DNA from: a virus
Lineage: Duplodnaviria; Heunggongvirae; Uroviricota; Caudoviricetes
Virus record (IMG/VR): IMGVR_UViG_2778261346_000008
Span: 1 to 11,570 of that record
Direction: 5' to 3' (one strand)
Length of the DNA: 11,570 bases
In this document: piece after piece, positions 7,230 through 7,271 of the stretch
Layout of the letters: each line of letters opens with the position of its first letter
How positions within the stretch are numbered: the stretch's first letter is position 1
Notes under the pieces: generated by a model
What the model was told of the DNA's origin: nothing
What the model saw: only the letters and a program-made list of their open reading frames with translations
Database searches by the model: none
Program-made: the position numbers and the translations under genes

Positions 7230-7271
7230 TTTTTGCGCAGTTTACATAAAAAAATAGTGCGTACGCAAAAA
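7230..7271. promoter_or_regulatory. inverted repeat / candidate operator upstream of island operon
   Basis: TTTTTGCG (7230-7237) and CGCAAAAA (7264-7271) are reverse complements; internal palindrome GCGTACGC at 7259-7266; possible minus-strand promoter TTGCGT (7268..7263), 18 nt, TAAACT (7244..7239). Confidence 0.35.

Follow-up and report, generated by a model that had tools for sequence, protein, structure and literature searches.

The closest described systems to the locus considered here are the late promoters of lambdoid phages and their Q antiterminators. The structure of Q21 together with the phage 21 QBE was reportedly solved by Yin et al. in 2019 (PDB 6P1A and 6P18). Lambda Q belongs to an unrelated family (PF03589), and the lambda antisense promoter paQ, located within the Q gene, gives rise to an antisense RNA. 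The late promoter of phage 21 is composed of TTGACA followed by the QBE, a -10 hexamer, a short leader and a terminator (QBE sequence in PMC8022706), and the portion of Q21 from residue 94 to the C-terminus is reported to contact the QBE (PMC8022706). In Phi-stx2dact, Q is essential for Stx production, which was restored 286-fold by Q supplied in trans (PMC6328086).

The window, that is, the whole 11,570-nt stretch of DNA analyzed here, is E. coli lambdoid prophage DNA, 99.7–99.9% identical to strains E2348/69 and RM9154-C1; its relevant features are listed in Table 1. The original prediction, made from the letters of the window, was that an inverted repeat at 7230–7271 with an embedded palindrome plausibly forms an operator over the promoter of a minus-strand operon, perhaps for a 173-aa helix-turn-helix protein encoded in the same region (Q173), and perhaps shared with the divergent hok promoter. 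We favor a composite reading, to which we assign a probability of about 0.55, in which a Q-binding site would let Q173 compete with, and probably repress, the promoter of the three-gene cassette that constitutes this operon.

Table 1. Coordinates of the features discussed, numbered from the first nucleotide of the window.
Feature	Position	Strand	Remarks
Q173, 173-aa long-form Q-family protein, helix-turn-helix SLRAIAKQQGCSDGTIRKRLQ	4517–5038	+	Predicted binder of the palindrome
Three-gene cargo cassette (363, 142 and 197 aa)	5035–7185	-	Function unknown; convergent with the Q173 gene; operon of TTGCGT-18-TAAACT
Individual cassette genes	6094–7185, 5669–6097, 5035–5628	-	PHROGs 12777, 11490 and 9664, all of unknown function
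Left arm of the inverted repeat	7230–7237	none	Cassette-specific DNA at the predicted transcript start; outside the conserved element
Candidate cassette -10, TAAACT	7239–7244	-	18-nt spacer from TTGCGT
Perfect 10-bp palindrome, TGCGTACGCA	7258–7267	none	Predicted QBE-type binding site for a Q-family protein
13-nt invariant island, TGCGTACGCAAAA	7258–7270	+	Palindrome plus A-tract; identical across long-Q contexts
Candidate cassette -35, TTGCGT	7263–7268	-	A-tract/palindrome junction; best minus-strand match in PWM scan, 6.1 bits
Vestigial late-promoter -10, TAACAT	7277–7282	+	Positional counterpart of the TAnnnT of canonical blocks, which ends with the T of TGTTAAGAG
hok promoter, TTGGCT-17-TAGAAT	7327–7355	+	Neighboring module; 9.0 bits

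Both arms of the inverted repeat, TTTTTGCG (7230–7237) and CGCAAAAA (7264–7271), are present as described, with 100% complementarity and a 26-nt spacer. The palindrome does not occupy the center of the repeat, where it had been placed: GCGTACGC lies at 7259–7266 and overlaps the right arm, and the center of the repeat is at 7250/7251, within an A-run. When the 158-bp intergenic stretch 7192–7349 was shuffled 2000 times with dinucleotides preserved, a perfect 8-nt inverted repeat whose arms were no more than 40 nt apart occurred at least once in 17% of the shuffles, and palindromes of 8 bp and 10 bp occurred in 66% and 27%, respectively. Across the whole window there are 10 comparable inverted repeats and 12 ten-bp palindromes. 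Judged from the window alone, repeat and palindrome are not above chance. The left arm carries a substitution in STEC367 (TCTTTGCG), whose cassette is 98% identical, and is absent from the cassette copies of loci L003–L008 (73–75% protein identity), relative to which the window has 8 extra nucleotides. We attribute the 8-nt long-range inverted repeat to chance. Hairpins in RNA or DNA were also considered and rejected, as the 8+8 repeat would enclose a 26-nt loop and the palindrome would form stems of at most 3–4 bp with impossible loops.

These results bear directly on the model in which the 8+8 repeat is a classical repressor operator, possibly acting through looping, with joint control of the cassette and hok. 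Its arms do flank the candidate cassette promoter, with the right arm overlapping the -35 and the left arm overlapping the predicted start, but an operator at 7230–7271 is hard to reconcile with a chance-level repeat whose left arm is not maintained, and the site is located outside the hok module. The Rfam sok match spans 7362–7537 and the hok/sok leader starts at ~7362, from which the distance of about 90 bp given earlier is correct; the homology of thousands of hok loci begins at ~7349, and the dyad lies ~80 bp outside this conserved module. Control of hok/sok is post-transcriptional. We thus regard the repeat operator as highly improbable, and its extension to shared control with hok as unsupported.

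The conserved feature is considerably shorter. From the comparison of related loci, the real element is the palindrome TGCGTACGCA together with its A-tract, a conserved prophage element. The island TGCGTACGCAAAA is unchanged in the window, in STEC367, and in L258, L270 and L271, the last three of which carry unrelated cargo. The DNA flanking it differs on both sides among the four cargo contexts found next to long-form Q genes (described below), the left flank being cargo-specific and the sole piece shared in the right flank being a short CTATC in the window and L271. Because the island is invariant while the adjoining Q genes show dS values of 0.4–0.84 (Q173 against three homologues), it is conserved far beyond neutral sites; the same long-form genes are intact and, with dN/dS values of 0.24–0.37, under purifying selection, and the proteins are therefore functional. 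Alignment of the region upstream of cassette gene 1 in its relatives identifies the conserved block as GCGTACGC plus a T-run, and more distant copies of the cassette have GCGGACCGC in place of GCGTACGC, a change of sequence in which the dyad symmetry is kept.

The block containing the dyad is widespread. The upstream region of L013 matches 3155 of 5426 E. coli genomes, and among the matches listed, many end in or just past the dyad block, short of the start of the cassette. In prophages that lack the cassette, the stop codon of a PF06530 Q gene is followed directly by the block, which therefore belongs to the phage rather than to the cassette; in L017, for example, the late strand following the Q stop reads TAA-aaaatgattaGTGCGGTCCGCAAAAAgtatgtcagtaTGTTAAGAGTGGTTACTTCGCC...AAACCCGCCGCGAGCGGGTTTTTTT, of which AAACCCGCCGCGAGCGGGTTTTTTT is the terminator. 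Scanning viral contigs with TGTTAAGAGTGGTTA as an anchor recovered 113 copies (about 50 unique), with a common layout of a weak -35, the dyad, an A-tract, ~11 variable nucleotides ending in TAnnnT, an invariant GTTAAGAGTGGTTAC leader and an intrinsic terminator. This order of elements resembles that of the phage 21 late promoter given above. The primer arm used for the delta-Q derivative of Phi-stx2dact retains exactly this block, in its GCGGTCCGC class (primer in PMC6328086), and since Q in trans restores Stx, Q acts at or downstream of the block in that phage. This primer was the sole find of a literature search for the block sequence. Two resemblances were rejected: the StxS-type pR' of Sakai and 933W, with its 258-nt leader, is a different promoter type (PMC7547250), and the phage 21 QBE sequence ATTGAGCAAATGAGCA is absent from these blocks. 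Taking these comparisons together, we consider that the element at 7258–7270 is probably a binding site for a Q-family protein.

Eight dyad sequences (GCGTACGC, TGCGTACGCA, GCGGTCCGC, GCGGGCCGC, TTTACGTACGTAAA, TTTACGATCGTAAA, TGTTATAACA and TGGAATTCCA) occupy one fixed position in the blocks, with their centers 20.5–21 bp upstream of the T of TGTTAAGAG. Each block was paired with the nearest upstream Q homologue, and the recognition-helix segment of the latter was compared with the dyad. The dyads form seven classes, and in 48 of 48 unique pairs dyad class and helix motif correspond, with 5–2924 bp of varied cargo in between, Q and dyad being physically linked such that co-inheritance could inflate the covariation. 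The pairings are GCGTACGC with CSDG(T/M/K)(I/V)R, GCGG(T/G)CCGC with K(K/S)(D/S/C)EK.(I/V)R, TACGTACGTA with CSDG(Y/L)IG, TACGATCGTA with CSDTCIG, TACAATCGTA with RSDCWVG, TGTTATAACA with ISLNQVV and TGGAATTCCA with VSHTHVLK. The covarying helix segment aligns with the QBE-contacting part of Q21. Symmetry that is kept through many sequence changes is, at the level of these alignments, independent evidence for a dimeric DNA-binding protein.

One helix position shows a simple pattern, in which Arg accompanies dyads with an outer G.C (TIRK and LIRI with GCG..CGC) and Gly accompanies those with an outer T.A (YIGK, CIGK and WVGR with TACG..CGTA); this position may make a direct base contact. Three other types of dyad reader were considered and rejected. 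Host factors (PurR or proteins with GalR/LacI-type half-sites) do not fit the half-site arrangement, and the dyad sequence varies among phages; a 65-aa winged-helix ORF located after the terminator is the same in L013 and L017 as in L016, which have differing dyad classes, and is absent from the window; and a downstream DNA methyltransferase is found in some of the loci only.

In the window the candidate reader is Q173, the gene for which is 2.2 kb from the palindrome. The protein matches PF06530 with 108 bits, has a sigma-70 region 4-like helix-turn-helix, and is a remote match to the solved Q21. Its helix, CSDGTIRK, belongs to a class whose partner is always GCGTACGC (in 11 of 11 loci), and judged by this covariation the dyad would match the DNA specificity of its neighbor. 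The earlier suggestion that the 173-aa protein acts at the site is therefore partly borne out, in that a helix class tracking GCGTACGC makes it the most likely binder; its predicted role as a classical repressor does not stand, as it belongs to the PF06530 antiterminator family. Q173 thus plausibly acts over the operon promoter, for a reason other than that originally given.

Q173 is representative of a long form of Q (172–174 aa) that has an additional domain at its N-terminus (PHROG 3323). This form occurs in 68 of 5426 E. coli genomes; its gene is always located upstream of hok in the nin region, with a second, canonical Q gene further downstream. Four unrelated antisense cargo modules occupy the interval between the long-form Q and hok: the three-gene cassette of the window, a DUF6731 gene with one for a small protein, genes for a 477-aa protein and a nucleoid-associated protein, and genes for two hypothetical proteins. 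The N-terminal ~63 residues of Q173 (window 4517–4705) have their own PHROG match, to phrog_3323 (function unknown; E value 1.9e-14), which suggests that the long form arose by fusion of a domain to a short Q. Several other features were noted in these regions. Just upstream of the Q173 ribosome binding site, at 4478–4497, is a GC-rich hairpin capped by a GAAA loop (GGCCGCCCGAAAGGGCGG); it lacks a T-run and has a boxB-like appearance. The Rfam sRNA STnc100 is matched at 11158–11344 on the plus strand (115 bits), and L017 has one downstream of Q, beside tRNA genes. In the matching E2348/69 record the second canonical Q is annotated upstream of STnc100, at roughly 9550–10240 of the window.

As in more than 30 viral loci, where distances reach 2924 bp, the site in the window is downstream of the Q gene on the same strand with antisense cargo in between. 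The sense promoter has a -35 of ATAGTG and the -10-like TAACAT, with a total score of ~0 bits. The conserved initial transcribed/pause block GTTAAGAGTGGTTAC is missing, its place being taken by GATGAGCTTTAACC, which has residual similarity only, and no terminator-like site is found at 7272–7362 of the window, the counterpart being present in L017. Leader and terminator are missing in all four long-Q contexts, and together with the sense score of the window this indicates that late-promoter function has apparently been lost and the binding site kept. We note that the dyad, A-tract, CTATC and TAACAT are retained in the right order, as they would be in a still-working Q-dependent plus-strand promoter reading into hokD and the nin-like genes downstream. 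We consider this very unlikely, as the promoter scores at essentially zero and lacks the leader and terminator, the four long-Q contexts all have different right flanks, and hok has a strong promoter of its own. With neither a pause/leader block nor a terminator, the window copy is best classed, by alignment, as a derived variant of the pR'/QBE region rather than as a functional late promoter.

On the minus strand, TTGCGT-18-TAAACT is the top promoter match within 7186–7365 and recurs at the same position in relatives, with matches to the consensus, in agreement with the original placement of the element over the best candidate promoter of the operon. The score is at about the 90th percentile of the best matches in random 110-nt segments. 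The transcript is predicted to start at ~7234–7230, which would give a leader of ~47 nt to the ATG at 7185. The homologous -10 is TAAACT in L003, TAAAAT in L006 and TAGACT in L008, and the other long-Q contexts have TATCTT (L258), TATACT (L270) and TAAACT (L271) at 17–18 bp from TTGCGT, such that TTGCGT-17/18-TAnnnT points into the cargo in all four. By these alignments the promoter hexamers are positionally conserved in relatives. The same candidate antisense promoter is found in the 11 GCGTACGC-class viral loci with an identified Q, which are not all independent and in which the weakest -10 is TTTGAT. When anchored at the dyad, it is the top antisense match in 28 of 52 unique blocks; its score is also good beside certain cargos in sense orientation and low in the GCGGTCCGC-ATTTT class, and it is therefore not a universal feature. 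Separately, a plus-strand promoter-like sequence, TTTCCC-17-TAAACT, is present at 7201–7229 (7.3 bits), inside the cassette leader and directed toward the palindrome; it is not conserved among cassette relatives, and its TAAACT forms an additional 6-nt inverted repeat with AGTTTA at 7239–7244.

This promoter geometry raises the question of whether the 13 nt are kept simply because they contain the -35 and adjoining upstream portion of the cargo (formerly late) promoter, with no dedicated binder. TTGCGT lies inside the island with a -10 at the appropriate distance in all four long-Q contexts, T-runs beside a -35 are common in promoters, and the -35 by itself could account for part of the conservation. 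However, the ACGCA half (7258–7262, plus strand) is invariant although it falls in what is normally free spacer, the remainder of which differs completely, and a promoter element would not account for a dyad symmetry retained through eight variants or for dyad classes that track the Q helix. We therefore think it unlikely that the island is promoter alone. A role in positive control has also to be weighed, in which Q173 at the palindrome, serving in either direction, would load onto minus-strand RNA polymerase and activate or antiterminate the cargo operon. The dyad center at about -30 from the predicted cassette start is close to the position of about -27.5 in canonical late promoters, but the ~47-nt leader contains neither a terminator nor a conserved pause-type block, and the antisense flanks differ completely between cargo types; we view positive control as quite unlikely.

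The functions of the cassette genes are not revealed by database comparison: Pfam and NCBIfam give no match, and PADLOC gives only a weak match to PDC-S54. This match (E 0.002) is to the third cassette protein (5035–5628, minus strand), which also contains an HGGHVD...GEAKLW stretch reminiscent of a PD-(D/E)xK core. Gene 1 has 32 relatives, all in Enterobacterales. A profile scan of genome contigs with gene 1 yielded one locus, and cassette relatives were instead gathered by exact-protein look-up; in every recovered locus with neighbors called (L003–L015), the cassette is antisense, directly after a short (110–130 aa) PF06530 Q and before late/lysis genes. The same three-gene cassette is thus seen in two settings, the gap between short Q and lysis genes and the gap between long Q and hok.

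More generally, ~30 of 36 cargo-bearing loci (viral loci L003–L015 and L018–L137, and window 5035–7270) have antisense ORFs between the PF06530 Q gene and the promoter block, and this gap is a hotspot for cargo. In L016 (O157:H7 strain NE92) the gap carries a sense-oriented gene for a CPBP intramembrane protease at 3013–3831, and the hotspot therefore takes cargo in either orientation. At the hok-proximal site of plasmid pSTEC1024_3 (L259), PD-Lambda-2-like genes occupy 1791–3426 (PADLOC PD-Lambda-2_C, E 1.8e-41); this locus has neither the GCGTACGC dyad nor an annotated Q gene. One cargo boundary lies immediately beside the dyad and the opposite one at the stop codon of Q, an arrangement that would suit a dyad that is the crossover or recognition site of a cargo-exchange machinery. 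Against this, no recombinase travels with the cargos, and the dyad sequence follows the class of the Q helix and not the type of cargo, and we regard such a role as remote.

On the composite reading that we prefer, the site at 7258–7270 descends from the Q-binding segment of a pR'-type (late) promoter used by Q21-family lambdoid antiterminators. A three-gene cargo operon would have been inserted antisense between the Q173 gene and its site, and the late-promoter half, consisting of the initial transcribed block and terminator, would have decayed in this lineage while the binding site was kept. The junction of T-run and palindrome would then supply the -35 of a sigma-70 promoter for transcription of the cargo operon. 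We infer that Q173 binds the dyad as a dimer, and we assume that it is made after induction because its gene is downstream of the early-right replication genes. Its occupancy would compete with RNA polymerase and would most likely turn the cargo operon down, although repression of the cassette by Q173, considered by itself as a prediction from sequence, is a substantial possibility that falls somewhat short of even odds.

A broader interpretation, which we offer tentatively and which is rather doubtful as a whole, joins three proposals. First, short Q21-family Qs would read palindromes, unlike that of phage 21, in at least seven co-evolving classes. Second, the gap between Q and its promoter would be a general hotspot for antisense cargo, with cargo promoters built on the Q site and expression inverse to late-gene activation. 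Third, the long Q by hokD would be an exapted paralogue that has lost its late promoter and now serves solely as the induction-coupled regulator of interchangeable, possibly defense, cargo. We found no description in the open-access literature of palindromic sites for this Q subfamily or of the Q-to-pR' gap as an antisense cargo hotspot. If the interpretation is true, DNA recognition in one branch of the Q21 family is by a symmetric dimer and follows a specificity code that is both simple and evolvable, and a previously undescribed cargo hotspot lies between the Q gene and the late promoter at many of the sampled lambdoid loci of E. coli, Salmonella and other Enterobacterales. It would also suggest how a prophage turns off accessory, possibly anti-phage, genes on entering its own lytic cycle. 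For annotation, an operator-like inverted repeat is replaced by a testable 13-nt site with a named candidate binder.

Among known systems, the pR'/QBE region of phage 21 is alike in its PF06530 protein with a sigma region-4-like helix-turn-helix, in a promoter that immediately follows the Q gene and has the site in its -35/spacer region, and in the short leader and intrinsic terminator of the canonical relatives. It differs in that its QBE consists of two tandem 8-bp direct repeats (ATTGAGCA/AATGAGCA; PMC8022706) whereas the site here is a palindrome, and by analogy with the solved complex a different, head-to-head binding mode is therefore implied. The dyad center is also ~8 bp further upstream than in phage 21, and the window lacks the pause region, leader and terminator and has a second canonical Q downstream. 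In the lambda late promoter pR' the Q site similarly falls between the -35 and -10 hexamers, and lambda paQ is an antisense promoter tied to the Q region that opposes Q-dependent expression, but the antisense promoter of the window drives protein-coding cargo. As in classical operators of the lambda cI or LexA type, the dyad overlaps a sigma-70 -35 and occupancy should exclude RNA polymerase; the predicted binder is in contrast of an antiterminator family and assumed to be lytic, not a lysogenic or SOS repressor, and the site is inherited from a promoter on the opposite strand. Finally, moron and defense-cargo hotspots, such as stx downstream of pR' and PD-Lambda, likewise carry interchangeable accessory modules at a fixed junction, but the junction described here is upstream of pR', between Q and its own promoter, and its cargo is mostly antisense.
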